Source: Candidatus Gottesmanbacteria bacterium RIFCSPHIGHO2_02_FULL_40_13
GTDB taxonomy: Bacteria; Patescibacteriota; Microgenomatia; 2-02-FULL-39-11
Assembly: GCA_001779235.1 (NCBI GenBank)
Contig: MFJN01000034.1
Span: 11,202-55,530, forward strand
Direction of reading: 5' to 3'
Length of the DNA: 44,329 nt
Part shown: positions 22,794 to 37,943 of the stretch, piece after piece
How the letters are laid out: each line of letters opens with the position of its first letter
How positions within the stretch are numbered: position 1 is the stretch's first letter
The notes under the pieces: model-generated
Told to the model about the DNA's origin: nothing
What the model saw: the letters and a program-made list of their open reading frames with translations, nothing else
The model's database searches: none
Position numbers and translations under genes: made by a program

Positions 22794-24830
22794 TTATTGT
22801 TTAAAAGTAATTTTGTACTTTGAGGTGAGAGTTTGGAGAATTTTATCTCTTACATTTTTTACATCTTCACTTTTCAAATTTTTCTTTTCATCCTGGTAGG
22901 TAATTCTTAATGTCGTTGAGTTATGGTAATGATCGACCATCTCAACTTTTTTTACTATCTTATTAATCTTGTAGATTTCAGAAATTAGAGGTCCGATGTA
23001 TGTTTTGGGAGGGTATTGGATAGTGAGGTCTTCAATGACAGCAGGATATAAGGGAATCGGTATATAACTTTTGGCGGGATTGGAAAGATCAACTAATATT
23101 TCTACATTCAGTACCGCCAAATAAAGAGCATTCTTTATTTGAAAGTTTTGAGAAATTGCTGGGTGGATTTTGCCAATATATGCTATTATTTTCCCACTCT
23201 TAACTAATGATACTGTTTGTTTCGGATGCCAGAAATGGCTCCATGTACCGGCAAAATCATTTTGATTTGATGGAATATTTTCTTTGACGCCCGCTATTCC
23301 CACCTCTTTAAGTAATAATTCAACAAATCCCTTGATCTTATAAAAATTGTTCTGGTTGCTGAGTGCGAGTATTGGAACTTCATCGGGTAAATCGTTCTTT
23401 TTAGGAAGATAAACGTTTGCCAATTCAAATAGTTGCAAATTATCAGAATAAAATTGATTTCTTGCCACAGTATCCAACATAGATGGAATCAGTGAAATCC
23501 GCATGTATTCAATATCAGAGGTAAGAGGATTAGCGACTTTGAGATGAGCAGAAGTTTTTAAGTTTGCTTTAGCGATCAATTCGCCGGAGATAAAAGAGTA
23601 ATTATAGACTTCGGTATGACCCCAATACTTTAGAATTTGTTTTATTTTTTCCTCAATGTCTAAAATTTTGGGTCTATTTGTAACTGGTATTTCTCCGGAC
23701 ATTAGTTTACTTGGCAGATTATGGTATCCATAGATGCGGGCAACTTCCTCAGCAATGTCTTCAGGGATGGTTACGTCAAATTGGCGAAACGTTGGTGGAG
23801 TAATTTCGAGTGAAGTGTTTTGCTCACTTATATGAAACGATAGAGATTCTAAGATACTAACTATTTCTGATTTCTTTAATACAATCCCCAATCTATCATT
23901 AATAAATTCGATAGTAGTCTTTATAGTTGTTGGTTTTGATTTTCTTGGATATATATCGATAAGTTCACCTGCAACTTTTCCTCCGGCAAGCTCCTGATAT
24001 AATTCTATTCCTCGCAGTAATGCTGTTTTTACCAATTCCGAGTCAGGATGTTTTTCATTGATAGTTGCTGCCATGGTGCGGATTCCATAACGCATAGAGG
24101 TTTTTCTTATTAATACCGGATTATTTGATTCAATAAAGAAAAATATTCTCCGTGTGTTTTTATTAACTACGCTATTTTCCGTACCCATGATGCCAGGCAG
24201 ATCAATAACTCTACCTGTTCCGTCATCTATAATGACATCCTCCGAATTTAATAAATATTTTTTATTATCCAAAGTTTCGATTGGTTCATTCTTTTTTGCA
24301 AAACGGATGAGGAATTTATGTGTTTTTATGCGATCGTAATCAAAGACATGGGAAGGGTGTCCGAGTTCAAGCATGACATAATTGGTGATATCAACCAGAT
24401 TATTCAGAGATCGAATACCAGACTTTTCAATGCGGTCTTTGATATAAGCGGGAGATGGTTTCATGAAGTCAACTTCCATCACAACACCCATAATGCGGTT
24501 ACAAATGATTTCAGGATCAGAAACTTCCATAGGGAGATGATTTGATTCCTTCACCCGAAAGGATTCCATACGGCCACCTTTCAGTTGTTTTAAGGCAGCT
24601 TTTATACCGAACCTGGGAAGTATTGCCACAGCTTCTCTGGCAATGCCATATACGGAAGCACAATCTGCCCGGTTTGAAGTAATCTCGATTTCATAGATAT
24701 AATCGTTATTTACTTTATTAATTCTCTCTACAGAAGGGCCACACAGAGATAAGCAGTCTTTCAACTGCTGTGGTGTAGCGTCAGTTTCCAGATATTCTCG
24801 TAGCCAGGAATCGGTAACAAGGATATTCAT
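22794..24830 (-). CDS. pheT: Phenylalanyl-tRNA synthetase beta subunit
   Basis: MNILVTDSWLREYL... B3/4, B5 and FDX-ACB-like C-terminus. ATG at 24830. The track extension to 24866 translates the intergenic repeat. Confidence 0.92.
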   Translation of the reverse strand: MNILVTDSWLREYLETDATPQQLKDCLSLCGPSVERINKVNNDYIYEIEITSNRADCASVYGIAREAVAILPRFGIKAALKQLKGGRMESFRVKESNHLPMEVSDPEIICNRIMGVVMEVDFMKPSPAYIKDRIEKSGIRSLNNLVDITNYVMLELGHPSHVFDYDRIKTHKFLIRFAKKNEPIETLDNKKYLLNSEDVIIDDGTGRVIDLPGIMGTENSVVNKNTRRIFFFIESNNPVLIRKTSMRYGIRTMAATINEKHPDSELVKTALLRGIELYQELAGGKVAGELIDIYPRKSKPTTIKTTIEFINDRLGIVLKKSEIVSILESLSFHISEQNTSLEITPPTFRQFDVTIPEDIAEEVARIYGYHNLPSKLMSGEIPVTNRPKILDIEEKIKQILKYWGHTEVYNYSFISGELIAKANLKTSAHLKVANPLTSDIEYMRISLIPSMLDTVARNQFYSDNLQLFELANVYLPKKNDLPDEVPILALSNQNNFYKIKGFVELLLKEVGIAGVKENIPSNQNDFAGTWSHFWHPKQTVSLVKSGKIIAYIGKIHPAISQNFQIKNALYLAVLNVEILVDLSNPAKSYIPIPLYPAVIEDLTIQYPPKTYIGPLISEIYKINKIVKKVEMVDHYHNSTTLRITYQDEKKNLKSEDVKNVRDKILQTLTSKYKITFKQ

Positions 24831-24928
24831 AGCGTTAAGCGTTAAGCGTGAAGGGAAAAGTAACAAATAACAATAATCTTTACGCTTTACCCTTTCTGCT
24901 TTACGCTTTACCCTTTCTGCTTTACGCT
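24831..24928. repeat. pheS-pheT intergenic spacer built from 7-nt units: 21-bp tandem repeat (2.4 copies) plus an imperfect inverted copy
   Basis: ctttacgctttaccctttctg at 24878-24898 and 24899-24919, plus ctttacgct at 24920-24928. The left arm agcgttaagcgttaagcgtgaagggaaaag (24831-24860) matches the reverse complement of the right unit at 18/23 positions. A 17-nt AT-rich spacer lies between them. Confidence 0.85.
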
Positions 24929-24930
24929 AG

Positions 24931-25959
24931 TTAAAATTGTTCTAAAAATCTAATATCATTACTATATAAAAGTCTCAAATCATCAATTTTAAGTCCCTGT
25001 TTCATCATGTAGGTACGTTCAACCCCCCAGCCGAAAGCGTACCCGGTATATTTCATGGGATCAATTTTACCGGCCTTTAAAACATTGGGATGAACCATGC
25101 CGGAACCACATAGTTCCATCCAACCTTCTTTACAAAGCCTGCAACCTCTGCCTTTGCAGAATCCACAAGTAATGTCCACTTCAAATGATGGTTCAGTAAA
25201 TTGAAAGTGGAATGGGCGTAACCGTATTTTTCTATCTTTTCCGAAAAATTCTTTAGCAAAATACTCAAAAGTTCCCTTAAGATGTGTGATATTTATGCCT
25301 TTATCTATTACTAATCCTTCGAATTGATGGAACATCGGAGTATGAGAGATATCCCAATTGGGGCGATAACATTTGGCGATGTTGATCATTCTTATAGGTG
25401 GCTTTCCCGCTCTTTCCATTTCTCTTACCTGGCCTGATGATGTATGAGGAGACAAAACCACTTTTCCCATTTTAAGATTTGGGGGTAAATCGATAAAAAA
25501 AGTTTCAAAATCGTCACGCGCAGGGTGATTTACTGGCATATTTAATGAATCGAAAGAATACCATTCCCATTCGATTTCAGGGTATCTTCTGCGTGTAAAA
25601 CCGATTCTCTCAAATATACGGGTAACCTCTGAAATAGTTTGACTGACTATATGTAGATGGCCTAATTTGGGTGGCGTGCCGGGAGCAGTCACATCGAGCC
25701 AGTCGGAGAGCTGATTGTTTGCAACTAATTTTTTTTGCTTACTGATTTTTTCCTCTAAATTCTTTTTTATTTTATTAGCCAAAATCCCAATTATTGGTCT
25801 TTCACTTTGAGGGATTTCTTTAAGTTTCTTAAGTAACTTAGTGAAGTTACCATTTTGCCCAAATAATTTCAGATACAATGCATTTACGTCTTTATCACTT
25901 TTCAACTTCGCCAATTCTACTAGAGACATATTTTCTAATTCGTTTAGTTCTTTTTCCAT
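24931..25959 (-). CDS. pheS: Phenylalanyl-tRNA synthetase alpha subunit
   Basis: Class II motifs (HPARD, FRPNWDISHTPMFHQFEG, GWGVERT). The first ATG is at 25959 (MEKELNEL...). The track start 26001 is TTG. Confidence 0.93.
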   Translation of the reverse strand: MEKELNELENMSLVELAKLKSDKDVNALYLKLFGQNGNFTKLLKKLKEIPQSERPIIGILANKIKKNLEEKISKQKKLVANNQLSDWLDVTAPGTPPKLGHLHIVSQTISEVTRIFERIGFTRRRYPEIEWEWYSFDSLNMPVNHPARDDFETFFIDLPPNLKMGKVVLSPHTSSGQVREMERAGKPPIRMINIAKCYRPNWDISHTPMFHQFEGLVIDKGINITHLKGTFEYFAKEFFGKDRKIRLRPFHFQFTEPSFEVDITCGFCKGRGCRLCKEGWMELCGSGMVHPNVLKAGKIDPMKYTGYAFGWGVERTYMMKQGLKIDDLRLLYSNDIRFLEQF

Positions 25960-26022
25960 ATTTGTTGCTTTTTCCACCACGTAATAAATTTTGTCAAACA
26001 AAATTTAAACGTGGTAGGAACG

Positions 26023-27264
26023 TTAAAAGCTTCGCTTTTTTACGTTCCACCATAACTCTATTCTATCAAAAGATTTATTAATTGCATCTTCCGGCGATCC
26101 GAAGGAAAGTCTCAGGTGGTACTCTCCTTCAGGCCCGAAACCGATACCCGGAACGGTGACGACAGCAGCTTCATAGAGTAATTTTTTAGCGAATTCAATA
26201 CTGCTTATCGGCAGGTTGTAGCGTGGAAAAACATAATAGGTACCACAGGGCTTTACATAAGAAAAAAGATCAGGCAGGTTGTCCAGTCGTTTACAGATAA
26301 TATCGCGGTTGCGTTTTAGCCATTTTCTATGATTATTAACTACTCCCTGCGGACCGGTCAACGCGGCGATCGCTGCCTCCTGGGATATATGCGGTGCGCA
26401 AACGATGTTGGCGTCATGAATTTTTAAGATATGCATCAGCAATTTTTTATTAGTATGAAGGAATCCTATTCGCCATCCCATCATACCGTATTTTTTTGAC
26501 AGGGAACAGCATCTGATGACCCTGGGCCAGAGTTTTTTTATCGAAGCAATATTAAAATATGAAGTATCATCATAAATGAGAAAATCATAGACTTCATCGG
26601 TAATGACATATATTTTAGTCTCGTATAAGATCTCTGCGAGACTTCTAAGGTCTTCTTCCAAAAAAACGGCGCCTGTCGGATTCTGGGGATTATTTATCAC
26701 GACTGCTTTAGTTTTTTTAGTGATGGCCTTTTTAATATTGACAACATCTAAACGGTAACCTGTTTTTTTATCTTCAATCATGGGAACAGGAACCGCGATA
26801 CCTCCGGCGATTGATACCTGCTCGCCGTAGGATGAAAAATAAGGAGAGGGTAAAATAACCTCATCACCGGGATTAACCAAAGTCAGCATTGAATAGAGTA
26901 GTCCTGCCATACTGCCGGGAGTTATCAGAATGTCATCGGAGGAGGTTTCAATTCCCAGTAATTTTTGTGAAAGCGCAGCAGTTATGGTGCGAAGTTCAGG
27001 CAATCCTGTCAGAAGTGTGTATTTATCAATATCTTTTTTATTTTTTATTGCCTTGATAGCATGCTGGTGAATAAAGTCTGGTGCGGGATAAAAAGGAAGT
27101 CCTACCCCGAGCGATACTATGTCTTTACCTTTATTCTGTTCCAGTGCGCCAAGATATGTCATTTCCTTAATGACGGAAACACTGGTATTTTTAAGCCTTA
27201 CTGCGAGCTCCGGCAAATCGACGGTGTCGCCTGTTGAAGTTAGAACCGATCTGTTGTTGTTCAT
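26023..27264 (-). CDS. Class I/II PLP-dependent aminotransferase (likely the aromatic/phenylpyruvate aminotransferase of the operon)
   Basis: NPQNPTG, SLSKKYGMMGWRIGF (PLP lysine). 4-nt overlap with the aroC stop. The substrate assignment comes from context only. Confidence 0.8.
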   Translation of the reverse strand: MNNNRSVLTSTGDTVDLPELAVRLKNTSVSVIKEMTYLGALEQNKGKDIVSLGVGLPFYPAPDFIHQHAIKAIKNKKDIDKYTLLTGLPELRTITAALSQKLLGIETSSDDILITPGSMAGLLYSMLTLVNPGDEVILPSPYFSSYGEQVSIAGGIAVPVPMIEDKKTGYRLDVVNIKKAITKKTKAVVINNPQNPTGAVFLEEDLRSLAEILYETKIYVITDEVYDFLIYDDTSYFNIASIKKLWPRVIRCCSLSKKYGMMGWRIGFLHTNKKLLMHILKIHDANIVCAPHISQEAAIAALTGPQGVVNNHRKWLKRNRDIICKRLDNLPDLFSYVKPCGTYYVFPRYNLPISSIEFAKKLLYEAAVVTVPGIGFGPEGEYHLRLSFGSPEDAINKSFDRIELWWNVKKRSF

Positions 27265-28427
27265 AAGTTTCTTAGGTTACCTAGGTAACTTAAGTAATTC
27301 CCATTAATTTCTGCCATCGAGTCACCGCCAAACTTTTCCAAAAAAGAATTGGCCAAAACAAACGACAGCATCGCCTCAGAAATAACTCCGGCGCGTGGAA
27401 TGACGCATATGTCAGACCGTTCAAGCAAGGCTTTGGCGGCTTTCTTTGTTTTTAAGTCAATTGTATTCAGAGGACTTCCGAGTGATGATAGAGGTTTATG
27501 ATACACTCTGACGACTACATTTTCTCCATTGGTAACCCCCCCTTCCAGACCTCCGGCACGGTTTGTTTTTCTCCTGATATTATGACCGTCAGAAATTATT
27601 TCATCATGAACATCAGAGCCAAGATCAGAAGCGTTGGCAACTCCTGTCCCTATTTCGACTGCCTTGACTGAAGGAATGCTCATCAATGCTCCGGCAATCA
27701 ATCCGTCGAGTTTCCGGTCATAATGTACATAACTTCCAAGTCCGGCAGGTACCCGGGATGCGATAACTTCAATGACCCCTCCTAAAGTATCTTTACTCAT
27801 CGTAGCATCAATAATCGCTTGTTTCATCCTTTTAGAAGTGTTCATCTCAATGCATCTGATGTCTGGATCTGTCTGATCGACGCTGACGATTTTGTGAAAA
27901 TCCCGCTCTTCTGCTTCCAGTATAACTTTGCCGATTTGTACCGTGTGGCTAGCAATCAGCATTTTAAATTCAGCCAGCAGTTTTTTGCATATTGCCCCGA
28001 CAGCCACCCGCATTACCGTTTCCCGTGCGCTGGCTCTTTCCAAGACGCTGCGCACATCGTCAAAGTGATATTTGATTACTCCTGCCAGATCGGCATGACC
28101 CGGCCTGGGGTTGGTTAAGTGTTTTAGCTTTACACCCTCGGATGTTAAGGGTTCAATACTCATTTTTTCATTCCAATTATCATGATCCATATTATCCACC
28201 AGAAGCGCAATCGGACTTCCCAAAGTTTTACCATTCCTTACTCCGGAGAGGATTTTTACTGTATCAGACTCTATTTTTCCACGCCCCCCCCGTCCTGCTC
28301 CGGATTTACGTTTCTCTAGCTCTTTTTGTATATCGTGGTGAACAAGTGATAATCCAGCGGGTATCCCCTCTAAAATAGCAACTTCAGCCGGTCCATGTGA
28401 TTCTCCTGCAGTTAAAAACCTAATCAT
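27261..28427 (-). CDS. aroC: Chorismate synthase
   Basis: MIRFLTAGESHGP..., GRGGRGKIES..., RSDICVIPRAG. Confidence 0.95.
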   Translation of the reverse strand: MIRFLTAGESHGPAEVAILEGIPAGLSLVHHDIQKELEKRKSGAGRGGRGKIESDTVKILSGVRNGKTLGSPIALLVDNMDHDNWNEKMSIEPLTSEGVKLKHLTNPRPGHADLAGVIKYHFDDVRSVLERASARETVMRVAVGAICKKLLAEFKMLIASHTVQIGKVILEAEERDFHKIVSVDQTDPDIRCIEMNTSKRMKQAIIDATMSKDTLGGVIEVIASRVPAGLGSYVHYDRKLDGLIAGALMSIPSVKAVEIGTGVANASDLGSDVHDEIISDGHNIRRKTNRAGGLEGGVTNGENVVVRVYHKPLSSLGSPLNTIDLKTKKAAKALLERSDICVIPRAGVISEAMLSFVLANSFLEKFGGDSMAEINGNYLSYLGNLRNL

Positions 28428-28442
28428 ATGATTATTAGAAGT

Positions 28443-29273
28443 TTAAGGAATTGATTCATTAATGTTTTTTAAAGCTTGTTCCATTATTCTAACCGGAGGG
28501 TCGATTCCGGTGAACATTTTAAATTTTAACACAGCCTGCCAAAAAAGCATTCTTTCTCCATATACTAATTTACTTTGCATTTCTTTAGCGTTTACTAATA
28601 ATTTAGTTTCTTTAGGATTAGTAACAAGATCCATGACAGTTAAGTCTGAGCGCAATAAACCTTTTGGAACAAGTGATTGATTTTCATTCGGCTTCATTCC
28701 GACTGATGTAGCATTGATTAAAATTTCTGCTTGTTCAATTTCTTGAGCAAGAGATTGTATAGAATTACTTCTGGCATTTATTTTTCTGGTAATTTGTTTG
28801 GCGAGGTCTGCATTTCTATTTAGAATAATTAAATTTCCGCCTTCATCCGTCACCGCAATGGCGATTGCCCGGGCTGCCCCGCCGGCACCCAGTAATAATA
28901 CATTTTTATTTTTTATAACGGTTACTTCGTTTAACGCTTTGACACAACCTAATCCGTCGGTATTGCCACCGCTTAATTTACCGTTGTCATTAACTATGAC
29001 GTTTACCGCACCAATTATTTGAGCATTTTCGTCAAGTTCATCAAGATATTTTATTGCCTCGATTTTATACGGAATAGTGACACCCACCCCTTTTATTCCC
29101 AGTTGGCGAATTCCCTCAATTGCCTTTTTCAGATCTTTTACCGCAAAAGGAACATAGACATAATTGAGTTGTAAAGCTTTAAAAGCAGCATTGTATAAAG
29201 TAAACATTTTGCTTGTTTTGTATGTTGAACCGAAAAACCCGATTATTTTTGTTTCTCCGTTTATTTTCATCAT
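28443..29273 (-). CDS. aroE: Shikimate dehydrogenase
   Basis: GVTIPYK, NTDGLG, LLGAGGAARAIA (NADP Rossmann). Confidence 0.92.
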   Translation of the reverse strand: MMKINGETKIIGFFGSTYKTSKMFTLYNAAFKALQLNYVYVPFAVKDLKKAIEGIRQLGIKGVGVTIPYKIEAIKYLDELDENAQIIGAVNVIVNDNGKLSGGNTDGLGCVKALNEVTVIKNKNVLLLGAGGAARAIAIAVTDEGGNLIILNRNADLAKQITRKINARSNSIQSLAQEIEQAEILINATSVGMKPNENQSLVPKGLLRSDLTVMDLVTNPKETKLLVNAKEMQSKLVYGERMLFWQAVLKFKMFTGIDPPVRIMEQALKNINESIP

Positions 29274-29311
29274 TATAATTTTACTTCATTACTATATATT
29301 AATGTAGTAAA

Positions 29312-29848
29312 TTAAATCTGTAATTGAATCATTTTAACTATTTGTTCAGGATCCATGGTTTTACATTTCAGAGTAATGTCAGCCAGTTTTTCATAGACAG
29401 GATTTCGGTATTTTAATACTGCATTAAATGAAGATATTGGATTATTCGGATTAGCAAAAAAAGCAGGAATTCCGCCGGAAATTATTCTTTTGTATAATGC
29501 GTCACGATCAGGTTTAAGATAAATAACTTTACCTAATTGCTTAAGTATTTTCTGATTTATCAAATTTAACGGTGTACCCCCGCCGCAGGCTAAGATATAA
29601 TTATTATTATCAGCACGTTTTACTAATCCTTTTAACACTGAAGACTCTAATTTTCGAAAATACTCCTGCCCGTATTTCCGGTAAATTTCACGGAAATTTA
29701 ATTTCTTTTTTTTTGCCTGAAAATGTTCTTTTTCCAGTTCATCGTCAAGTTCAATAAATTGAATATTGAGCTTTTCAGCCAAAAGTTTTCCCACAGTTGA
29801 TTTGCCGCAACCTTTCATTCCGATAAGAATTATTTTTAAATAAGTCAT
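29312..29848 (-). CDS. aroK: Shikimate kinase
   Basis: IGMKGCGKSTVGKLLAEKL P-loop. About 178 aa. ATG at 29848; the track start 29860 is TTG. Confidence 0.88.
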   Translation of the reverse strand: MTYLKIILIGMKGCGKSTVGKLLAEKLNIQFIELDDELEKEHFQAKKKKLNFREIYRKYGQEYFRKLESSVLKGLVKRADNNNYILACGGGTPLNLINQKILKQLGKVIYLKPDRDALYKRIISGGIPAFFANPNNPISSFNAVLKYRNPVYEKLADITLKCKTMDPEQIVKMIQLQI

Positions 29849-29856
29849 ATTTCTAA

Positions 29857-31152
29857 TCAACTTTGGATAACCATATCAGCCCCTGCTTTTATCATTTCAG
29901 GAATAAATGTCTCAAATGATTTTTCAAGCATTTCTGCATCGGAAATAATAGTCTCTCTTTCACTATTCAATCCGGCAACAGCCAGAGATAACACCATCCG
30001 GTGATCTTTATATCCATTCAGTTTTGCGCCCTTCATTTTCCAACTGCCGTCCTGATCAATAATTATACCGTCTTTTCTTTCTATCACCTTTGCACCCATC
30101 TTATGAAGTTCTTTACATATTGCCGAAATTCTGTCACATTCCTTCCAGCGGGCAGTCAAGGCATTTTTTATGATCGTCTTACCGCTGGCAAAACAGGCAG
30201 CGACAGCAATGGTTGGAACCTGATCAGGCATTAAGTTCATGTCGATTTCGATACCGTTTAATTTGCTTGTTCTGGCGGTTAAAGTACTATCATTATTTGT
30301 AATATCGGCCCCCATTTTATGCAGGGTGTCGATAACAAATTTGTCTCCATAAGGATCACTGTGATCCATTCCTTTAACAGTCACTTTTGAGTTCTGCGTA
30401 ATTACGGCAGCCAAAAGAGGATACGGCGGAGCCGACCATTCCAAGGGAATGGTTGCGTCAAATTTCTCGGGAGGATTATTGCCGGGAAAATGATAATGAA
30501 GATATTTATCATTAGTAAATTGTAATCCTGTTTTTTTAAACCAGCGAAGGAGTAAATCGATGTAGGCTGTTTCTCCTGAATTTTTTACGTAAATATCTAC
30601 AGGTTTTTTTGATAATACAGAGGCAATCAGAACACTGAATACCGGCTGACAGCCTGTTCCGTCCATATGAGCCGTTCCTCCGTTAACTTTCCCTTTTATA
30701 AGAAGAGGAGCCATTCCGTCATTTTTACTGGATATAATTTCGACACCCAGTTCTTTAAAAGGTTGAAATAAATTTTTGGAAACGGTTCTTAATTTTCTGA
30801 TCGATTCATCTCCGGTAATGACAGTCCATCCGCGGCCTGCCGCAGCAACTCCGGCAATGAAAAAAAGCATGGTACCGGAATTACCAACGTTAATTATGTC
30901 ACCGGGAGTTTGTAATTTTCCGGCTACACCCTTCACCTGAAATACATTATAAGGTTTTTCTTCAATCTCTGCTCCATACATTTTCATCGCTTTGACAGCC
31001 TCATCCCAATCATTGCTTCGCTTTGGACTGCGGATTACAGATATCCCACCCGCAAGCGACGCCATAATTAAAGCACGATATGAATGGGTCTTACTTTTCG
31101 GTATGGTAATTTCCCCCTGTAAATTTTTGCTTTTTGTGACTTTTAAAAACAT
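29857..31152 (-). CDS. aroA: 3-phosphoshikimate 1-carboxyvinyltransferase (EPSP synthase)
   Basis: PKSKTHSYRALIMASLA, NVGNSGTMLFF, DHRMVLSLAVAGL. Confidence 0.95.
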   Translation of the reverse strand: MFLKVTKSKNLQGEITIPKSKTHSYRALIMASLAGGISVIRSPKRSNDWDEAVKAMKMYGAEIEEKPYNVFQVKGVAGKLQTPGDIINVGNSGTMLFFIAGVAAAGRGWTVITGDESIRKLRTVSKNLFQPFKELGVEIISSKNDGMAPLLIKGKVNGGTAHMDGTGCQPVFSVLIASVLSKKPVDIYVKNSGETAYIDLLLRWFKKTGLQFTNDKYLHYHFPGNNPPEKFDATIPLEWSAPPYPLLAAVITQNSKVTVKGMDHSDPYGDKFVIDTLHKMGADITNNDSTLTARTSKLNGIEIDMNLMPDQVPTIAVAACFASGKTIIKNALTARWKECDRISAICKELHKMGAKVIERKDGIIIDQDGSWKMKGAKLNGYKDHRMVLSLAVAGLNSERETIISDAEMLEKSFETFIPEMIKAGADMVIQS

Positions 31153-31153
31153 A

Positions 31154-31609
31154 TTACTTTTTTAAGTTACCAATTTTATTTAGGTGGCTTACCAGCTTTT
31201 CTAAAGCATTATAATAGCTTTTTTCTCTTAACCCGGACGTTTGACCGGTGCGAATATCCTCCAGAACATTAACAGATATATTGACACCGGTTTTATTGAT
31301 ATCAGTCATATGAACTTCTATAAATGGTTTATCAAAATCAATTAAAGCCTGCCTGAGAGAATATCCGTATCTCACTAAGGCCCCGGGATTAATCAGAACC
31401 CCGTTCGCCTTCCGCGATGATTCTTTCTGCAGAAAATCAATAATAGCACCTTCATGATTGGATTGAAAAAAATCCAGTTCGCAGAAAGATTTTTTGGCAA
31501 TCTTCATCAATTGTAAATTAATTTCCTGCATGGTGATATTCCCGTATTTTACAGGGTCCCTTTTTCCCAGCATACTTAAGTTCGGGCCGTGAATTATTAA
31601 TATTTTCAT
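31154..31609 (-). CDS. aroQ: Type II 3-dehydroquinate dehydratase
   Basis: MKILIIHGPNLSMLGKRDP..., FQSNHEGAIID, INPGA..., EVHMTDI. Confidence 0.95.
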   Translation of the reverse strand: MKILIIHGPNLSMLGKRDPVKYGNITMQEINLQLMKIAKKSFCELDFFQSNHEGAIIDFLQKESSRKANGVLINPGALVRYGYSLRQALIDFDKPFIEVHMTDINKTGVNISVNVLEDIRTGQTSGLREKSYYNALEKLVSHLNKIGNLKK

Positions 31610-32682
31610 ATAATTATTTCGTCTAATGCCTGTTTTATAATATGTTGTTCGACATCAATTTGGGCAATTATTTTACCGATATCTTTGATCAGAATAAATG
31701 TACCGTCTTTTTTGTCAAATTTTAATGCATTTAAAACTGCATTTTTATTAATATTAGATACAGATACGGGCAATCCCAGCTGTAGAATCGTATTTCTGAT
31801 CTCCGCAAATTTATTCTCAGGCAATAGTCCTTTTAAAAGGCTAATTTTGGCCGCGGCAATCAAACCGATGCCCACGGCCTGACCGTGTGATAATTCGCCG
31901 TTTGCTACAGCTTCTACAGCATGTCCGATTGTGTGGCCCAGATTTAATTTTTGACGAATACCCGACTGTTCAAATGGGTCACTTAATGTTATAGCCGTTT
32001 TAATTTTTTGACAATGATGTATAATATTGCCGGCTCCTTTCCAATTATTACTTTTTATTAAATCCCTAAATCCCATTAATTCTTCTTTTGATGGCGTTCC
32101 CCATCCGAGATAATATTTCGCCATTTCTCCTAATCCGCTGATAATCTCGTGTTCAGGAAGCGTTTTCAGAAATTTAACATCGCATATTACCAGATCCGGT
32201 TGTTTGAATGTTCCCAGCATGTTTTTCAGCATATTTCCATTTTCAATAAATAAATCAACTCCGTTTTTTCCTCCGATGGCCGCATCGATTTGAGCAAGAA
32301 GAGTAGTCGGCATAAAAATACTGCTGATTCCGCGAAGCATGATGCTGGATAAGAACCCGCCGATGTCACTGACGACTCCTCCTCCGATTGAGACGAGGCA
32401 GGATTTTCTATCAAAAGCTTGAGCAAAAAATGGCTTAATGATATTTGGAATTTTCAGTATATCTTTTTGCCTTTCGCCAGCTTCTATAATTGATAACGTT
32501 AAGGGTTTGTCCAATCGGGAGAGAGATTTTAATATTTTATCTTTATATAAATCACTGATTGTTTTATCTATTAAAATTAAAAAACTGCCCGGATTTATAT
32601 CAGCGTTTGCTATTATTTTATCAAGGGATGTCAGAAGGTCATATCCGGTCACAGTAATATTTGTTTTTACTAATATGCTCAT
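31606..32682 (-). CDS. aroB: 3-dehydroquinate synthase
   Basis: GGGVVSDIGGFLSS, LNLGHTIGHAVE. 4-nt overlaps on both sides. Confidence 0.93.
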   Translation of the reverse strand: MSILVKTNITVTGYDLLTSLDKIIANADINPGSFLILIDKTISDLYKDKILKSLSRLDKPLTLSIIEAGERQKDILKIPNIIKPFFAQAFDRKSCLVSIGGGVVSDIGGFLSSIMLRGISSIFMPTTLLAQIDAAIGGKNGVDLFIENGNMLKNMLGTFKQPDLVICDVKFLKTLPEHEIISGLGEMAKYYLGWGTPSKEELMGFRDLIKSNNWKGAGNIIHHCQKIKTAITLSDPFEQSGIRQKLNLGHTIGHAVEAVANGELSHGQAVGIGLIAAAKISLLKGLLPENKFAEIRNTILQLGLPVSVSNINKNAVLNALKFDKKDGTFILIKDIGKIIAQIDVEQHIIKQALDEIII

Positions 32683-32942
32683 ATCAACTCCTGCTTATCT
32701 CTGGATATCAGAATAATTAATTTAAAGATTTTCAAAATTATTCCATTATTTAAATTCAATAATTTGCATCTATCTTTAACTTTTATTAAAATTTCTTTTT
32801 CTCTTTTTAAGTCGATCAGTCTCAGGTTGTTATTTATTTTATTATTTCCTGCCAGTACTGCCAGATCCAGCCTTTTTTTAATAAGCTGAATAATATCTTT
32901 ATCGATCTTGTCTATTTCTCTTCTAATTTCTTCAAGATTCAT
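32679..32942 (-). CDS. Chorismate mutase (AroQ class, monofunctional)
   Basis: LEEIRREIDKIDKDIIQLIKKRLDL is typical of the CM_2 helix 1. About 87-93 aa, with ATG at 32942 or 32960. Confidence 0.85.
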   Translation of the reverse strand: MNLEEIRREIDKIDKDIIQLIKKRLDLAVLAGNNKINNNLRLIDLKREKEILIKVKDRCKLLNLNNGIILKIFKLIILISRDKQELI

Positions 32943-33756
32943 ATATCTTTCCAGGATCATAAAGTCCCAGTAATTTTAAATAATTAGTGCTTTTTTTCAT
33001 TTTTTTTAAGACATTATTTATTTGAGCATTATCTTTTTGCAAAATAAAATCAACTATAAATATATATTCCCACGGTTTACCGATGATCGGCCGCGACTCA
33101 ATTTTTGTCAGATTTAATCCGGCTTCAGCATATGGTTTTAACGCCTTTAACAGGCTCCCCGGTTCATGTACCACTGAAAATATGATTGACGCTTTATTTC
33201 CGTTTTTATTAGGACGGCGTGAAATAACGGCGAACCGTGTATAATTATTATCATCATTTTGTACTTTTATATCCAGCATCTTTAATTTATTTATTTCAGC
33301 AGCCTGACGGCTGGCTATAGCACAATATATATTTGATCTATTTTTACGCAGTAATATAGCAGCCGAAGCCGAATCTTCTGCAAAAACAGGCTTAATATTT
33401 TTATTTAGCAAAAAAAAGTCATGACACTGTTTTAGTGATTCAGAATGAGTATAACAATATAGTAAATTATTTAGGTTACTTATTGTATCTCTATTAACCA
33501 GTAAATGATGTTTAATCTTTAATAAAATTTCTCCGACTATAAAAATGTCTTCTTTCATCAATAAATCATAGTTTTGCGTAATACTGCCGGTTAAGGAATT
33601 TTCTACCGGAATAATTCCATAATCACTCTTTTGTTTCTTTAATTTGCTGAATATCTTATAAAATGAATCGCTGCCGGCCAGATTATTACCATTTTTAAAA
33701 TATTTCAAAGCGGCCAGAAAACTGTACGAACCGGGCTGGCCAAGGTAATGAATCAT
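32932..33756 (-). CDS. pheA: Prephenate dehydratase with C-terminal ACT domain
   Basis: NYTRFAVIS (TRF motif), TKIESRP (ESRP motif), PWEYIFIVDF. Confidence 0.93.
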   Translation of the reverse strand: MIHYLGQPGSYSFLAALKYFKNGNNLAGSDSFYKIFSKLKKQKSDYGIIPVENSLTGSITQNYDLLMKEDIFIVGEILLKIKHHLLVNRDTISNLNNLLYCYTHSESLKQCHDFFLLNKNIKPVFAEDSASAAILLRKNRSNIYCAIASRQAAEINKLKMLDIKVQNDDNNYTRFAVISRRPNKNGNKASIIFSVVHEPGSLLKALKPYAEAGLNLTKIESRPIIGKPWEYIFIVDFILQKDNAQINNVLKKMKKSTNYLKLLGLYDPGKIYES

Positions 33757-34763
33757 GACCTGCCAACCGCTCTGGCAACTTTTTTAACCTCTAAAACAAG
33801 TTTGGCCAATTCAATCGTGGAAATTGCCTGATCGGCATCAGAGACAGAACGTCTTGGATCATGATGGGCTTCGATAAGGAGTCCATCAGCTCCTGCTGCA
33901 ATTGCCGCTTTACTCATCGACCGGACAAGGGACGCCCGTCCCACACCATGACTGGGGTCCACCACGATCGGCAGGTGCGTTTCCTGCTTTAAATAAGCAA
34001 CCGCATTCAGATCCAGAGTAAATCTGGTTTCCGGAACGTGGGTGCGGATTCCTCTTTCACAAAGTATGACTTTATCATTTCCGCCCACCAGAATATATTC
34101 CGCTGCCAGTAAAAATTCTTTATAGGTAGCCCACATGCCTCTTTTTAAAAGAACCGGTTTACGGCAATGGCCCAATTCTTTGAGAAGCGGATAATTTTGC
34201 ATATTGCGTGATCCTACCTGAAATATATCCGTATATTTTTCAATAAGTTCGATGGCCCGTACATCAAGAACTTCGGTAATCACACCCAGATGGTGCATCT
34301 TAGCGGCATTTTTTAGAAAATGCAGCCCGATTTTACCCAGGCCCTGAAAATCGTATGGGCCGGTACGCGGTTTGAATGCTCCACCGCGGAGAATATGACA
34401 GCCGGATGATTTTACCTCTTGTGCAATCGTTTCCATCTGAAATTTGCTTTCGACAGAACACGGCCCTGCCATAATGACGATTTCTTTATCCCCGATATTA
34501 CAGCCGTTAACCCTAATTTTTGAAGATTCGAGTTTATAATTTTTACTGGCAAGTTTATAAGGCTTGGTAATATCCAAAATGGTTTCAACCTGGACATGTT
34601 TTTGTACTTCTTTTTTTGCTGAATCACCGAATTTACCGACAACTACCAAAAGGCTTTGGTTATTTCGCACGAGAGATACAACTTCGATATGTTTTTCCAG
34701 CAGAAGTTTTCTGAATTCTTTTTCCTCTGCTAAAGTCGTCTCTTTTTTTAGAAAAATTATCAT
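33753..34763 (-). CDS. aroF: DAHP synthase, type I-beta, with N-terminal ferredoxin-like regulatory domain
   Basis: MAGPCSVES, LRGGAFKPRTGPYDFQGLG, VVDPSHG. The about 75-aa N-terminal extension resembles the Thermotoga-type enzyme. Confidence 0.92.
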   Translation of the reverse strand: MIIFLKKETTLAEEKEFRKLLLEKHIEVVSLVRNNQSLLVVVGKFGDSAKKEVQKHVQVETILDITKPYKLASKNYKLESSKIRVNGCNIGDKEIVIMAGPCSVESKFQMETIAQEVKSSGCHILRGGAFKPRTGPYDFQGLGKIGLHFLKNAAKMHHLGVITEVLDVRAIELIEKYTDIFQVGSRNMQNYPLLKELGHCRKPVLLKRGMWATYKEFLLAAEYILVGGNDKVILCERGIRTHVPETRFTLDLNAVAYLKQETHLPIVVDPSHGVGRASLVRSMSKAAIAAGADGLLIEAHHDPRRSVSDADQAISTIELAKLVLEVKKVARAVGRS

Positions 34764-34799
34764 AATTAGATTATTACGCGTTTCGTACCTCTATCATTC

Positions 34800-34880
34800 C
34801 GAGCGACTCCGATGACCATCGGAGGAGCGTGGGAATCTTTCATCAGATTGCCACGTCGCTACGTTCCTCGCAATGACAGC
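34800..34880. repeat. REP-like hairpin elements upstream of the aro operon
   Basis: ctccgatg-ac-catcggag (8-bp stem) inside gagcgactccgatgaccatcggaggagcg. attgccacgtcgctacgttcctcgcaatgac is an imperfect palindrome, and on the minus strand it carries gctgtcattgcgaggaa, the same motif as at 6261 and 6292. Confidence 0.7.
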
Positions 34881-34932
34881 TTTGTAATTCATCATCTCTT
34901 CATATCCGCCTGCGCTAAAGCTTCGGCGGATT

Positions 34933-34972
34933 ATGCAGCTGTAATCCCGATTTAATCGGGAAACAGCTGCAT
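34933..34972. other. 40-nt nested hairpin with perfectly paired stems
   Basis: atgcagctgt (34933-34942) pairs perfectly with acagctgcat (34963-34972). The inner stem is cccga/tcggg (34946-34960). There is no U-run on the appropriate side on either strand. Confidence 0.8.
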
Positions 34973-34997
34973 AAAAAAACCTCCCTTTCAGGAGGTT
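34973..34997 (-). terminator. Rho-independent terminator after thrS-infC-rpmI-rplT
   Basis: The minus strand reads aacctcc-tgaaag-ggaggtt followed by tttttt. It lies about 120 nt downstream of the rplT stop. Confidence 0.65.
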
Positions 34998-35116
34998 AGT
35001 TTGTGCTCTTTTTATTTAAAAACTATTTACAGCCAGACAAACCCGCCTCCTTTTTGGAAGGAGTAAAGTAAAAATAATACCATTGGGTTTGTATGCTCAT
35101 ACTGTAGGAAAGTTTA

Positions 35117-35464
35117 TCAGACATTTTTTACCTTGTCAACTAAAGCCTGAAAAGTATCACTATCCGAAATGATCATATCAGACAGTATTTTACGATTAAT
35201 ATTTATTTTCGCTTTTTTAAGTTTATTGATAAACACACTATATGAAATATTATTCCTGATAACAGCATTGGATATTCTGTGGATCCATAATTTCCTCATA
35301 TCACTTTTTTTCTTTCTCCGCCCTGCATATGCGTATTGTCCGGCGTGGAGATACGCTTCTTTTGCAACTTTGATCAGTCTCCGTTTAGTCATGCGAAAAC
35401 CTTTGACGGCTTTCAGCACTTTTTTATGTTTTCGATGTGATACTACGCCTCTTTTTACTCTCAT
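35117..35464 (-). CDS. rplT: 50S ribosomal protein L20
   Basis: MRVKRGVVSHRKHKKVLKAVKGFR...AYAGRRKKK. Confidence 0.96.
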   Translation of the reverse strand: MRVKRGVVSHRKHKKVLKAVKGFRMTKRRLIKVAKEAYLHAGQYAYAGRRKKKSDMRKLWIHRISNAVIRNNISYSVFINKLKKAKININRKILSDMIISDSDTFQALVDKVKNV

Positions 35465-35472
35465 ATTTTAAT

Positions 35473-35667
35473 TTATGATGTTATTAATGTCCTGATAATT
35501 TTGGCGTTTTTACCAGTTAATTGCCGCGGTTCCTTGAATCTTCTTCTGCGGCTGCCTGATTTGGTTATTCTTTTATGGCGTGACAGGTGATGACCACGCA
35601 TGATCTTGCCTGTTTTGGTAATTTTAAATCTTTTCATAACCGTTTTTCTGGTTTTTTGTTTATACAT
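35473..35667 (-). CDS. rpmI: 50S ribosomal protein L35
   Basis: MYKQKTRKTVMKRFKITKTGKIMRGHHLSRHKR. AAGGAG lies 9 nt upstream of the ATG at 35667. The track start 35724 is inside infC. Confidence 0.92.
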   Translation of the reverse strand: MYKQKTRKTVMKRFKITKTGKIMRGHHLSRHKRITKSGSRRRRFKEPRQLTGKNAKIIRTLITS

Positions 35668-36205
35668 TTTTATCTGCTCCTTTTTTGTACGGCGATAATA
35701 TTGACGCCAATACTTTTCCTTCAAAATACGGGCTTTTAATCACCTTGGACTGCTCCTTTAAAGCCTCAACGACCTTGTTCATGATGTCAAAACCAAAGTT
35801 TTTGTGAATAATCTGTCTTCCTTTAAAGGCCACCATTATTTTCAGTTGATTTCCGTCTTCCAGAAATGATTTACCCTGATTAATTCTAACCTGCAAATCG
35901 TGGGTACCTATAAAAGGAGATAATCTGATTCCCTTTATGCCGACATTTTTTACTGATTTACCCGACTCCCTTTTTTTCTTCTCCTCCAGATATTTAAATT
36001 TCTTATAATCAATAAGCTTTACTACGGGAGGCTTGGCATTTGGTGCAATTTCTACCAGGTCTTTTTCTTCAGTTTTAGCGCGCCTCAATGCTTCATTTTT
36101 ATCAATAATACCAATCTGTTTCCCCTTATCGTCCAAAAGTCTTATCTGCGGAGCGCTGATCTGGTAATTCAAACGGTAATATTTAGTTCTTATTATCGAT
36201 TTCAA
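35660..36205 (-). CDS. infC: Translation initiation factor IF-3 (non-ATG start)
   Basis: ISAPQIRLLDDKGKQIGI..., VEIAPNAKPPVVKLIDYKKFKY, IRLSPFIGTHDLQ. There is no in-frame ATG in the first about 120 codons. Candidate starts are TTG 36205, ATA codons, or TTG 36172. Confidence 0.9.
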   Translation of the reverse strand: MKSIIRTKYYRLNYQISAPQIRLLDDKGKQIGIIDKNEALRRAKTEEKDLVEIAPNAKPPVVKLIDYKKFKYLEEKKKRESGKSVKNVGIKGIRLSPFIGTHDLQVRINQGKSFLEDGNQLKIMVAFKGRQIIHKNFGFDIMNKVVEALKEQSKVIKSPYFEGKVLASILSPYKKGADKNV

Positions 36206-37943
36206 GTTTTAAAAAACTCAATAATTTATCAAAATTATAAACTCCTAAATTCTTACCGTCTCTTGACCTTAGGTTCACATTTATATTTTTATAATTTAAA
36301 TTGTCCAGTGTAATTTCTTTATCTCCGATTATACCTAAGAATGGCACCTTTTGTAAAGTTGCCTGGCGGATTTTAGATTGCATTGATTCCTGCCGGTCAT
36401 CCACATCCACTCTGATTCGCTGTGTTTTCAGTTCATCTCTTAAGATATTTGCAGCTTTTTGATGTCTGTCGGCGATGGGTATCAGAGTTAATTGGACAGG
36501 AGCAAGCCAGACGGGAAAGGCTCCGGCAAAATGTTCAATCAAAATTCCAAAGAATCTGTCGACCGATCCAAGGATAGCCACATGTAGTACGGCAGGTCGT
36601 TCTTCTTTGCCATTCTCGTTTATGTACTTCATGTCGAAGTTCTCAGGTTGTACAAAGTCGAGTTGAACTGTGGTTAATTGCCACTCACGACCCAAGGAGT
36701 CTTTAACCATGACATCTATTTTTGGGCCATAGAACGCTGCTTCGCCTTCGGCAACAAAGTATTCAACATCTTGTGACTTCATTGCATCAACCAGTGCTTT
36801 TTCAGCACGATCCCAATTTTTTACTTCACCTAAATACTTGTCTGGATTTTTGGGATCGCGAACAGATATGCGCGCTTTATAATTCTTAAACCCAAAAGTT
36901 TCATATACGTGGAACGTGAGGTCTATAACCTTTTGAATTTCAGCTGATATGTCTTGGTCTCTGACGAATGCATGAGTATCGTCTTGAGTGAGCGCTCGTA
37001 CTCGAAAGAGTCCGTTGAGTTCACCTGCCTTTTCGTATCGATAGACCGTGGCATTTTCAGCCAAATATAATGGTAATTCACGATAACTGCGGGGACGGAC
37101 ATTGAAAATCTGGAAGTGGTGTGGACAATTCATAGGTTTGAGAACGTATTCATCGTCATCAACTTTCATGGGGTTGAACATTGCGTCGAATTTTTGCCAA
37201 TGACCCGATTGTTTGTACAAATCGCTTTTTCCGATATGTGGTGTCCACACAAATTGAAACCCGCGTTTTTCTTTTTCCTCGATAAGCCAATTTTCCAATA
37301 ATCTTTTTAGCAAAGCGCCTTTTGGCATATACAATGGGAATCCAGAACCAACCGATGGACTGATCAAAAATAGTTCGAGTTCTTTACTTATTTTTTTATG
37401 ATCCCTTTTTTTAGCTTCATCCTGGCGAAGGAGAAAATCTTCAAGTTCTTTAGCGGTTGGAAAACAAGTTCCGTATATTCTGGTTAACATTTTATTTTTT
37501 TCGCTGCCGCGCCAGTACGCACCGGCAACGGAAAGAAGTTTGAAATGGGTAAGTTCTTTATCCGGGTGCTCTACATGACCCATTTTGCAAAGGTCAAGGA
37601 AATTACCGGGATTATTAGTCATGAGCTTTTTGCCGCCTTTGGCAAATTCTTCTGCCATCTCGATCTTATAAGGGTTCTCTTTAAAAAGCTTTTTTGCCTC
37701 TGCCAAAGTCACTTCATTGTATGTGAAACTTTTCCACATCGGAAGGATTTGCCTCATTTTTTCTTCAATTTTCGGTAAATCTGATTCGGAAATTTTCGTC
37801 TCACCGAAATCAAAATCCTGGTAGAAGCCGTTTTCGATAGACGGTCCTATGCCGTTATGTGTGCCCGGCCATAAATCTTTTACTGATTTAGCCAGTAAAT
37901 GTGCGCATGAATGGCGGAGGTTATCCAACAGTTTATTATCCAT
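36183..37943 (-). CDS. thrS: Threonyl-tRNA synthetase lacking the N-terminal TGS domain
   Basis: Starts at ...LRHSCAHLLAKSV (editing-domain His motif). Class II catalytic core and anticodon-binding domain. 586 aa. Confidence 0.95.
   Translation of the reverse strand: MDNKLLDNLRHSCAHLLAKSVKDLWPGTHNGIGPSIENGFYQDFDFGETKISESDLPKIEEKMRQILPMWKSFTYNEVTLAEAKKLFKENPYKIEMAEEFAKGGKKLMTNNPGNFLDLCKMGHVEHPDKELTHFKLLSVAGAYWRGSEKNKMLTRIYGTCFPTAKELEDFLLRQDEAKKRDHKKISKELELFLISPSVGSGFPLYMPKGALLKRLLENWLIEEKEKRGFQFVWTPHIGKSDLYKQSGHWQKFDAMFNPMKVDDDEYVLKPMNCPHHFQIFNVRPRSYRELPLYLAENATVYRYEKAGELNGLFRVRALTQDDTHAFVRDQDISAEIQKVIDLTFHVYETFGFKNYKARISVRDPKNPDKYLGEVKNWDRAEKALVDAMKSQDVEYFVAEGEAAFYGPKIDVMVKDSLGREWQLTTVQLDFVQPENFDMKYINENGKEERPAVLHVAILGSVDRFFGILIEHFAGAFPVWLAPVQLTLIPIADRHQKAANILRDELKTQRIRVDVDDRQESMQSKIRQATLQKVPFLGIIGDKEITLDNLNYKNINVNLRSRDGKNLGVYNFDKLLSFLKLEIDNKN

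Follow-up and report, generated by a model that had tools for sequence, protein, structure and literature searches.

A predicted aromatic leader-peptide attenuator upstream of a phenylalanine pathway and pheST inside a ribosomal-protein and synthetase gene cluster of a Gottesmanbacteria genome

Leader-peptide attenuation is established for pheA and pheST of Escherichia coli and for the aroF operon of Corynebacterium (PMC11802643; PMC1262725). The E. coli order thrS-infC-rpmI-rplT-pheM-pheS-pheT(-ihfA) includes the pheM leader-peptide attenuator (Springer et al., 1985, as cited in PMC11802643), and the aroR-aroF attenuator of Corynebacterium glutamicum has a leader with Phe-Tyr-Phe and works by ribosome stalling (Neshat et al., 2014, as summarised in PMC11802643). 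In Firmicutes, pheST and aromatic genes are under T-box control, in which the charging of tRNA sets the choice between terminator and antiterminator (PMC1262725). Here we analyze a 44,329-nucleotide (nt) stretch (the window) of contig MFJN01000034.1 from Candidatus Gottesmanbacteria bacterium RIFCSPHIGHO2_02_FULL_40_13. On its minus strand, ten genes for aromatic amino-acid synthesis (the block) lie between rplT and pheS, the first of them encoding 3-deoxy-D-arabino-heptulosonate 7-phosphate (DAHP) synthase (DAHPS). The spacer between rplT and the DAHPS gene holds a candidate attenuator, and the genes from DAHPS to pheT likely form a 12-gene operon controlled by classical ribosome-mediated attenuation through an aromatic leader. 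The predicted elements of the spacer are as follows (coordinates are those of the window).

35111-35139, minus strand: promoter-like sequence TTGACA-17-TGaTAAACT, a 10/12 match with the TG
35023-35100, minus strand: leader open reading frame (ORF) MSIQTQWYYFYFTPSKKEAGLSGCK, 25 codons, beginning MSIQTQWYYFYFT, its ATG 10 nt after the -10 element in this genome
35065-35082, minus strand: six consecutive regulatory codons, Trp-Tyr-Tyr-Phe-Tyr-Phe
35038-35091, minus strand: protector (anti-antiterminator) stem P1, CAAACCC (35091-35085) with GGGTTTG (35044-35038), enclosing P2, from minimum free energy folds
35047-35063, minus strand: protector hairpin P2, CTCCTT (35063-35058) with AAGGAG (35052-35047), starting 1 nt past the last Phe codon
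34990-35052, minus strand: antiterminator, region 2 AAGGAGG..GGGTTTG (35052-35038) with region 3 CAAACTAA-CCTCCT (35003-34990)
34973-34997, minus strand: intrinsic terminator AACCTCCT-GAAA-GGGAGGTT followed by U7, an 8-bp G+C-rich stem (hairpin 34997-34978)
34764-34972, minus strand: 209-nt insert of dispersed palindromic repeats between the attenuator and the DAHPS start, absent in the same-genus genome G001

The spacer contains each component of a leader-peptide attenuator: an ORF with aromatic codons, a terminator, an antiterminator, and a protector that adjoins the regulatory codons. The -35 box of the promoter-like site falls within the last rplT codons and its extended -10 element overlaps the rplT stop codon. 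No Shine-Dalgarno sequence precedes the leader ORF, whose translation probably starts on a near-leaderless mRNA. The 5' arm of P1 (CAAACCC) precedes the aromatic codons. The terminator core is CCTCCT-GAAA-GGGAGG, and the antiterminator uses the terminator 5' arm, which makes the two structures mutually exclusive; the duplex of regions 2 and 3 is predicted at -18.5 kcal/mol (z = -3.0). A preliminary description of this DNA had recorded a terminator after rplT, which is not a plain terminator but that of the leader-peptide attenuator. It had also placed the pathway in the slot where E. coli has pheM. The pathway is indeed there, but a pheM-like attenuator is still present and the two coexist.

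Transcription would start from the promoter in the 3' end of rplT, pass through the leader and attenuator, and continue through the genes from DAHPS to the aminotransferase and then pheS and pheT. When charged tRNA-Trp, -Tyr or -Phe runs short, a ribosome on the leader (MSIQTQ-WYYFYF-T...) would stall at the six aromatic codons. This stall would open P1 and P2, region 2 (GGAGG..GGGTTTG) would pair with region 3 (CAAAC..CCTCC), and the 2:3 pairing would preclude the terminator, such that RNA polymerase would continue into the pathway genes and pheST. With ample charged tRNAs, the protector and terminator would form and transcription would end at about 34973. The operon would yield phenylalanine from erythrose 4-phosphate and phosphoenolpyruvate, chorismate for a separate trp operon, and Phe-tRNA ligase. 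We infer promoter use, leader translation, stalling, and co-transcription of pheST from these sequence elements.

The E. coli pheM system resembles this locus in its flanking gene order, the position of its leader, a Phe-rich leader with a Tyr, and a terminator of the GCCUCC/GGAGGC type. It differs in that here ten biosynthetic genes stand between leader and pheS, the leader has a Trp and several Tyr codons, and the mRNA is probably near-leaderless. A model derived from Candidate Phyla Radiation (CPR) leaders returned the E. coli pheM attenuator as the top match in the 9-kb thrS-pheT region (24 bits), a similarity that is too weak to favor homology over convergence. The E. coli pheL-pheA system (RF01859) also has a leader-peptide attenuator before a phenylalanine biosynthesis gene, whereas here one leader would control a whole pathway and an aminoacyl-tRNA synthetase instead of one gene. 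C. glutamicum aroR shares a mixed Phe/Tyr leader before a DAHP-synthase operon, but belongs to another phylum, has a much shorter run (Phe-Tyr-Phe), and has no link to pheST or a ribosomal-protein cluster. The T-box differs in that the tRNA binds the RNA directly, without translation, and no T-box was found in this spacer. Among long aromatic operons, Bacillus subtilis has the supraoperon aroFBH-trpEDCFBA-hisC-tyrA-aroE, under control by the TRAP protein and T-boxes. It likewise joins many aromatic genes and an aminotransferase in one long unit, but includes trp genes, has no leader peptide, and is not joined to pheST or rplT. The proposed mechanism is thus of a known kind. The locus stands apart in the placement of a pathway and pheST behind one leader inside a ribosomal-protein and synthetase cluster, the run of codons for three amino acids, the probably near-leaderless leader, and the CPR lineage. 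A literature search, with most subscription journals outside its reach, returned no such fused operon or its CPR setting, and no paper on aromatic synthesis in Gottesmanbacteria or Microgenomates, or on leader-peptide attenuation in CPR.

We then compared the spacer across the Gottesmanbacteria-type family, sampled as 21 species representatives. All compared genomes are metagenome-assembled and 75-100% complete, and absences reported here mean 'not found'. All 14 block-bearing relatives with an assembled spacer have a leader ORF with W[F/Y]YFYF, together with the hairpins and the terminator. The aromatic-codon ORF is conserved in 16 family genomes despite differing nucleotides. Of 16 family members, 14-15 keep the promoter layout, in which the leader ATG follows the -10 element at a distance of 10-14 nt. 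Stem sequences vary (CCTCC, CCCGC, and CCCC types), and the protector arms match the terminator arms genome by genome. Automatic picking of hairpin arms failed for five of 16 leaders, which were assessed by eye; in the 11 genomes where it succeeded, P2 begins 0-3 nt past the last aromatic codon. In most family genomes the 2:3 duplex is predicted at -15 to -21 kcal/mol. Degraded Phe-rich leaders precede pheS in two genomes that lack the block (G004 and G005).

Both alternative folds show covariation. RNAalifold, unprompted, selected the 2:3 antiterminator pairing, with compensatory changes in four of five pairs. Covariation was tested on an Infernal alignment of 19 leaders with 500 shuffles and slid controls (in a MAFFT alignment of the leaders, some stems were one column off, lowering the paired percentages). 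The terminated fold, including the protector, is 73% paired, with a covariation of 0.299 versus 0.191 when shuffled and none of the 500 shuffles as high. The antiterminator (12 pairs, 75% paired, compensatory changes in 7 of 12) reaches 0.267 versus 0.152, again with 0/500 as high, and is best at slide 0. Both folds beat every slid control.

The best Rfam match of the spacer is Phe_leader (RF01859), matched at full length with 32.2 bits (E = 0.0011, 361-nt search). Known alternatives to a leader peptide were also considered. The T-box model RF00230 gave no match in the spacer at the gathering threshold or at E<=1, and for other known riboswitches Rfam gave nothing beyond the sub-threshold Phe_leader.

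A covariance model built from family leaders only was used for searches outside the family. A scan of 151 genomes of the class Microgenomatia gave matches in 45, and 43 places outside the family were inspected. More than 20 genomes of other families have a leader ORF with a regulatory codon run. In 11 genomes from at least seven other families the device occupies the rplT-pheS slot, and the leaders there are dominated by Phe (YFFFFS, FSFFFFS, LFFFFFFT, KFFFFFFN); a pheM-like attenuator in this slot is probably ancestral in the class. In family f10, the device precedes separate aro operons, with leaders such as ...NFFFYFYFT..., ...KKFYFYFYPT..., and ...SWFYFFFYFT.... It also precedes tyrS in four or five places, and DAHPS or prephenate dehydratase (PDT) genes in several. 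Attenuators of the same architecture were seen between PBP1A and tyrS at L152, L155, L217, and L222 (leaders including FWFYYTF and TYYYINHW), and tyrS also appears to be under attenuation in the class. At L225, L227, L220, L231, and L215, matches of model R2 have leaders rich in other residues (e.g., LLINVINVLLIGG, ISLSIILK, KFSWWRH), which hints at attenuators for branched-chain and other amino acids.

The make-up of the predicted regulatory codons follows the genes downstream. By manual count, the share of Tyr and Trp among aromatic codons is highest in family leaders (52%), followed by other aro leaders (38%), pheS leaders (13%), and the two leaders that remain upstream of pheST after deletion of the block (12%; NFFSFYFT and NFNIFTFNT, in G004 and G005). 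A Trp codon occurs in 10 family leaders, nine of them from genomes with trpB, and is absent in five leaders, all from genomes without an intact trpB. With somewhat less than even confidence, we propose that promoter, near-leaderless leader, and attenuator make up a portable module that serves as the main amino-acid sensor of Microgenomatia (before pheS, tyrS, aro, and probably other pathways). Its codons would evolve with the downstream genes, sensing Trp, Tyr, and Phe in the family and relaxing to a Phe-only sensor for pheST after each block deletion, and the terminator 3' arm would double as the ribosome-binding site of the first gene.

That last feature bears on the start of the DAHPS gene. 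In most relatives the DAHPS ATG directly follows the U-tract and the GGAGG of the terminator 3' arm is the sole Shine-Dalgarno-like sequence; in relatives without the insert this GGAGG lies 7 nt before the ATG, as a potential Shine-Dalgarno sequence. In such relatives the terminator 3' arm would act as the DAHPS ribosome-binding site and translation would be gated too, an effect that the 209-nt insert would uncouple in this genome. The 33-nt core of the insert has about 20 copies genome-wide. Related inserts occur at the same spot, right after TTTTTTTATG, in G018, G016, G003, G013, and G002, suggesting that repeat inserts favor terminator/start junctions.

The arrangement would have arisen once, in the family ancestor, inside the rplT-[Phe leader]-pheST slot that is found in other Microgenomatia and in E. 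coli. We lean modestly toward the native pheST promoter and leader having been kept, with the aro genes placed behind them, because the -35 box inside the coding end of rplT is shared with pheS-type sites. We regard it as possible, though on balance doubtful, that the aro operon instead brought its own aromatic leader, which displaced or fused with the native pheST leader. The aro operons located elsewhere in families f10, f28, f36, and f7 do have their own leaders, which alternate F/Y and W (e.g., NFFFYFYFT, SWFYFFFYFT), and W[F/Y]YFYF is closer to these than to the F-only pheS leaders. However, a -35 box in the last rplT codons is common to pheS-type sites of other families (e.g., G095), only a single leader is present, and the two post-deletion leaders indicate that codon content changes fast. 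Scores do not decide the origin, a point that tells against both the imported leader and our own account: aro-, pheS-, and tyrS-associated leaders all score 40-72 bits with the family-only model, and aro types are not separated from pheS types.

A further explanation dispenses with sensing altogether: the pathway replaced a pheM-type attenuator, the hairpin is a plain terminator of rplT or the ribosomal operon, and the aro and pheST genes use an ordinary promoter. An rplT terminator is plausible by itself, Rfam at the gathering threshold had no match here, and in this genome the terminator is 209 nt from DAHPS. We nevertheless consider this very unlikely, given an ORF with six aromatic codons that is conserved in 16 family genomes although the nucleotides differ, covariation of the protector and antiterminator arms with the terminator arms, occurrence of the device before aro, pheS, and tyrS in other families, and a conserved promoter upstream of the leader, beyond the rplT coding end.

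Several observations weigh against attenuation by an aromatic leader as we propose it. The RF01859 match (32.2 bits) stays below the gathering score of 55, and the leader is therefore not a member by the Rfam criterion. The 2:3 duplex is weak in some genomes (e.g., -10.5 kcal/mol in G010, z about -1), and equilibrium folding with a simulated ribosome footprint gave alternative folds, with no clean switch in every genome. The leader keeps three Tyr codons though the genome has no tyrA, and hence the match between codons and pathway is imperfect. A connection between Trp codon and trp operon has three independent contrasts behind it, two in the same direction and one unchanged, too few for statistical power, and stays a suggestion. 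In this genome 209 nt of repeats part the attenuator from DAHPS, before which there is no good Shine-Dalgarno sequence. Finally, the essential pheST genes lie behind the terminator and would need either basal readthrough or an internal promoter, for which there is a weak candidate at 26361-26332.

The genes of the block and of the surrounding cluster, all on the minus strand, are listed below with the profile matches that identify them.

36183-37943, minus strand: thrS, threonine--tRNA ligase (TIGR00418, 645 bits)
35660-36205, minus strand: infC, IF-3 (TIGR00168, 169 bits)
~35473-35664, minus strand: rpmI, L35 (TIGR00001 covers residues 21-81 of the 83-aa ORF 35473-35724)
35117-35464, minus strand: rplT, L20 (TIGR01032, 133 bits)
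33753-34763, minus strand: DAHPS, class I-beta, with N-terminal regulatory domain (NF006421, 422 bits, cut-off 335)
32932-33756, minus strand: PDT with ACT domain (PF00800, 170 bits, and PF01842)
32679-32960, minus strand: chorismate mutase (CM), AroQ type, CM_2 (PF01817, 58 bits)
31606-32682, minus strand: aroB, 3-dehydroquinate synthase (TIGR01357, 282 bits)
31154-31609, minus strand: aroQ (NCBIfam)
29857-31152, minus strand: aroA (NCBIfam)
29312-29860, minus strand: aroK (NCBIfam)
28443-29273, minus strand: aroE, shikimate dehydrogenase, the final gene of a swapped cassette (NF001319, 267 bits, cut-off 252)
27261-28427, minus strand: aroC, chorismate synthase (NF003793, 410 bits)
26023-27264, minus strand: class I-beta aminotransferase, a candidate aromatic or prephenate aminotransferase (PF00155, 190 bits)
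24931-26001, minus strand: pheS (TIGR00468, 257 bits)
22794-24866, minus strand: pheT, 690 aa (TIGR00472, 481 bits; Pfam domains)

ORF calls, NCBIfam, and Pfam bear out the preliminary description as to the order, strand, coordinates, and intactness of all 16 genes, and no aro gene is pseudogenised. The six cluster genes thrS, infC, rpmI, rplT, pheS, and pheT are all in order on one strand, with rplT and pheS 9.1 kb and ten genes apart and thus not adjacent as in an uninterrupted thrS-infC-rpmI-rplT-pheS-pheT cluster. The frequent 4-nt overlaps that had been noted account for five of the nine junctions within the block; the others are one 29-nt overlap and gaps of 1, 15, and 38 nt. As described earlier, pheS-pheT directly follow the block, with a gap of 21 nt after the aminotransferase gene. 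A terminator scan found none in that gap, and phenylalanine synthesis is indeed physically coupled to the charging of tRNA-Phe.

All seven shikimate steps (DAHPS, aroB, aroQ, aroE, aroK, aroA, aroC) matched NCBIfam families at full length, and all the enzymes of the phenylalanine branch are present (CM_2, PDT with ACT, Aminotran_1_2). DAHPS, aroA, aroE, and aroC score above the NCBIfam equivalog cut-offs. PDT (200.7/219), aroB (282/305), aroQ (135/146), and aroK (94/186) score below them, in the right families and at full length. Residues 5-334 of DAHPS align with the Thermotoga maritima enzyme (1RZM), including the N-terminal regulatory domain; this domain and the ACT domain of PDT are feedback domains at the enzyme level. 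The closest solved structure to the aminotransferase is the Pyrococcus horikoshii aromatic aminotransferase (1DJU), and the prephenate aminotransferases 6F77 and 5WMH belong to the same I-beta family. Its probable substrate, and hence the choice between a phenylpyruvate and an arogenate route, is deduced from family membership.

The preliminary description had called the pathway phenylalanine-only and had noted the absence of trp genes. Neither tyrA nor trp genes are present in the window. For TyrA, PF02153 had no match at E<=0.01 in this 85.6%-complete genome, and tyrA was also not found in the 96%-complete same-genus genome G001 or in the remainder of a seven-genome clade. In nine of 21 family members, however, tyrA (~290 aa, PDH_N and PDH_C) sits between CM and aroB, the spot where this genome has the 4-nt aroB-CM overlap, and G010 has a 108-aa tyrA remnant there. 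Where tyrA is missing from the block of a family genome, it is not present elsewhere in that genome. None of the seven clade members has tyrA, which implies one loss in the clade ancestor, with two more losses in the family. The phenylalanine-only state thus stands for this window and genome, but on the distribution of tyrA among relatives it is secondary, derived from a Phe+Tyr operon.

The absence of trp genes holds for the window only, as a complete trpE-G-D-C-F-B-A operon lies on contig C68 of the same genome. A true trpB was found in 13 of the 21 family genomes. Each of these 13 carries the block, and none of the four block-less genomes (0/4) has trpB. The co-occurrence of trpB and block within the family is an argument for assigning C68 to this genome, and the distribution of trpB fits with the block supplying chorismate for tryptophan. 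One could go further and suppose that the pathway mainly serves ends other than phenylalanine, either chorismate for folate and quinones or tryptophan alone. The trp operon that tracks the block would agree with this, as would four relatives in which the aminotransferase gene is missing. It is nonetheless very improbable: the block includes CM, PDT with ACT, and an aromatic-type aminotransferase, nearly all relatives retain these genes, Phe and Tyr codons predominate in the leader, and the block is fused to pheST.

The region upstream of trpE on C68 (~6432-6810, minus strand) is a G+C-rich structured stretch of about 380 nt with a terminator at its end. No Trp-rich leader ORF was seen upstream of trpE. 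A T-box was considered there, as AAGGTGGCACCGTG recalls a T-box motif, and was set aside because no Rfam T-box matched at E<=0.1.

The block is found at one site throughout the family. Seventeen of the 21 species have aro genes. All assembled copies occupy the rplT-pheS interval in one and the same order, as the synteny check called for earlier makes clear, and pheT, a convergent PBP1A gene, and tyrS come next downstream. This order is shared by independent assemblies of 16 other species, one a 1.1-Mb contig, and is therefore not due to chance or misassembly. The four remaining genomes (G004, G005, G006, and G019) have an uninterrupted thrS-infC-rpmI-rplT-pheS-pheT-PBP1A-tyrS order and no aroC anywhere in the genome. 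Outside the family, the contiguous thrS...pheT cluster occurs in E. coli and in at least 11 genomes of other Microgenomatia families, and in families f10 and f7 the aro genes form a separate operon while thrS...pheST is contiguous.

The species tree is based on a single gene (rpoB) and a quick tree search. In it the family is monophyletic (support 99), and the deepest branches (G007/G009, then G010/G011/G013/G008/G018) carry the block. The block-less genomes are nested in four block-bearing clades, G006 with G017, G019 with G012, and G004 with G015 and G020 (support 99-100), and G005 alone; an approximately unbiased test rejects uniting the four (p = 3.5e-55), and parsimony counts four changes for the block. 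At the empty site of G019, a scar matches its sister genome at 21 of 22 nt spanning the terminator 3' arm, the U-tract, and the DAHPS start codon, and in G004 and G005 the leader is left upstream of pheST. Deep branches with the block, nested genomes without it, and these scars together indicate that the family ancestor had the block and that at least four deletions followed.

One part of the block has a different history. The genes aroQ-aroA-aroK-aroE occur in two forms, A1 and A2, with A1 in seven genomes including this one. The aroA sequences of A1 carriers are 69-77% identical to each other and about 30% identical to A2, and there is no such split in DAHPS, aroC, or the aminotransferase. 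The A1 carriers fall in four separate rpoB clades (monophyly rejected, p = 4.6e-61), and the aroA tree shows A1 as a group of short tips on a long stem (1.4). The scatter on the rpoB tree and this tree shape indicate that the cassette spread laterally and replaced its counterpart in situ. The A2 5-enolpyruvylshikimate-3-phosphate (EPSP) synthase is a typical class I enzyme (247 bits to 1G6S), whereas A1 is remote from every solved enzyme (best 163 bits). A class I or class II label for the A1 enzyme was considered and not adopted, as its similarity to both is weak. The divergent A1 EPSP synthase could interest enzymologists.

The later history would accordingly comprise three losses of tyrA (one in this clade), four deletions of the block, and replacement of the cassette in four lineages. 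Horizontal transfer of the block, raised at the outset as something for gene trees to settle, applies to the internal aroQ-aroE cassette, while the block itself is ancestral and not a recent island. A recently acquired island, or an artefact of binning or assembly, is the least likely of all explanations: presence is patchy within genera (G006 versus G017, G019 versus G012), the cassette clearly moved laterally, and the nearest non-family DAHPS sequences include one from a DPANN archaeon at 59% identity, but position and order are identical on 17 independent assemblies (one the 1.1-Mb contig), block G+C resembles that of the flanks, the deepest branches carry the block, empty sites hold scars and leader remnants, and identities across the family for DAHPS, aroC, and the aminotransferase (58-87%) are like those of flanking genes.

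The host belongs to the class Microgenomatia (CPR/Patescibacteria) and to a Gottesmanbacteria-type family. Its genome of 1.29 Mb is in 70 contigs, with the window on a contig of 55.5 kb, and genome sizes in the class range from 0.7 to 1.8 Mb; the reduced-genome host that the preliminary description had supposed is thereby confirmed. CPR bacteria are usually regarded as poor in known regulators. According to published surveys, amino-acid synthesis is nearly absent in CPR (PMC13707452; PMC7567580). Among sampled genomes we detected aroC in 20 of 301 from the class, of which 15 belong to the Gottesmanbacteria-type family, and in 32 of 401 from the phylum. This makes the pathway rare among CPR bacteria, though not exclusive to the family. 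The expectation that such a host usually lacks amino-acid synthesis is upheld by the rarity of aroC, but this genome also has the complete trp operon on C68.

A whole CPR family thus retains the costliest amino-acid pathway, tied to the enzyme that charges tRNA-Phe and under a proposed translation-coupled RNA switch, a concrete example of metabolic regulation in uncultured ultra-small bacteria. The distribution of the device suggests that classical attenuation extends far beyond the Proteobacteria and Actinobacteria, the groups in which studies of it have been made. The family also offers a natural series for the co-evolution of operon and sensor, with genomes that have the full block, genomes whose block has no tyrA, genomes that deleted the block but kept the leader, genomes in which the leader is gone as well, and genomes with the swapped four-gene cassette.

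Some smaller features of the locus and its relatives were also recorded. The 690-aa PheT matches the bacterial profile from position 157 on and lacks the N-terminal tRNA-binding (B1/OB) domain; its relatives align starting at residue 7-13, and the truncation appears to be family-wide. Between this genome and G001, whose rpoB tips are about 0.09 substitutions per site apart, infC, rplT, and DAHPS are 86-91% identical, while thrS is 60% and pheT 52% identical. The synthetase genes thrS and pheT of this neighborhood look recombined or very fast-evolving. In G007 (L020, 14618-14698), a duplicate of the 27 C-terminal residues of the aminotransferase lies between the aminotransferase gene and pheS, a small rearrangement scar. 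The DPANN DAHPS mentioned above, the nearest outside the family, is from L033 (DUKR01000100), labelled Woesearchaeota, and could reflect a transfer between ultra-small lineages or a mislabelled bin.

Contig C68 carries two further RNA elements at L210. A second attenuator-like element (11600-11748, plus strand; 45 bits with model R2), consisting of the leader MNPRVNFYNNYSPSSRLFKEAGGIFMTIN, a hairpin, and a terminator, directly precedes a 318-aa ORF, and the Asn, Ser, or Tyr residues of the leader are candidates for sensing. At ~10410-10691 (minus strand; L210 311-592) lies an Rfam match to the group I intron (RF00028), which scores 58 bits against a gathering score of 50.

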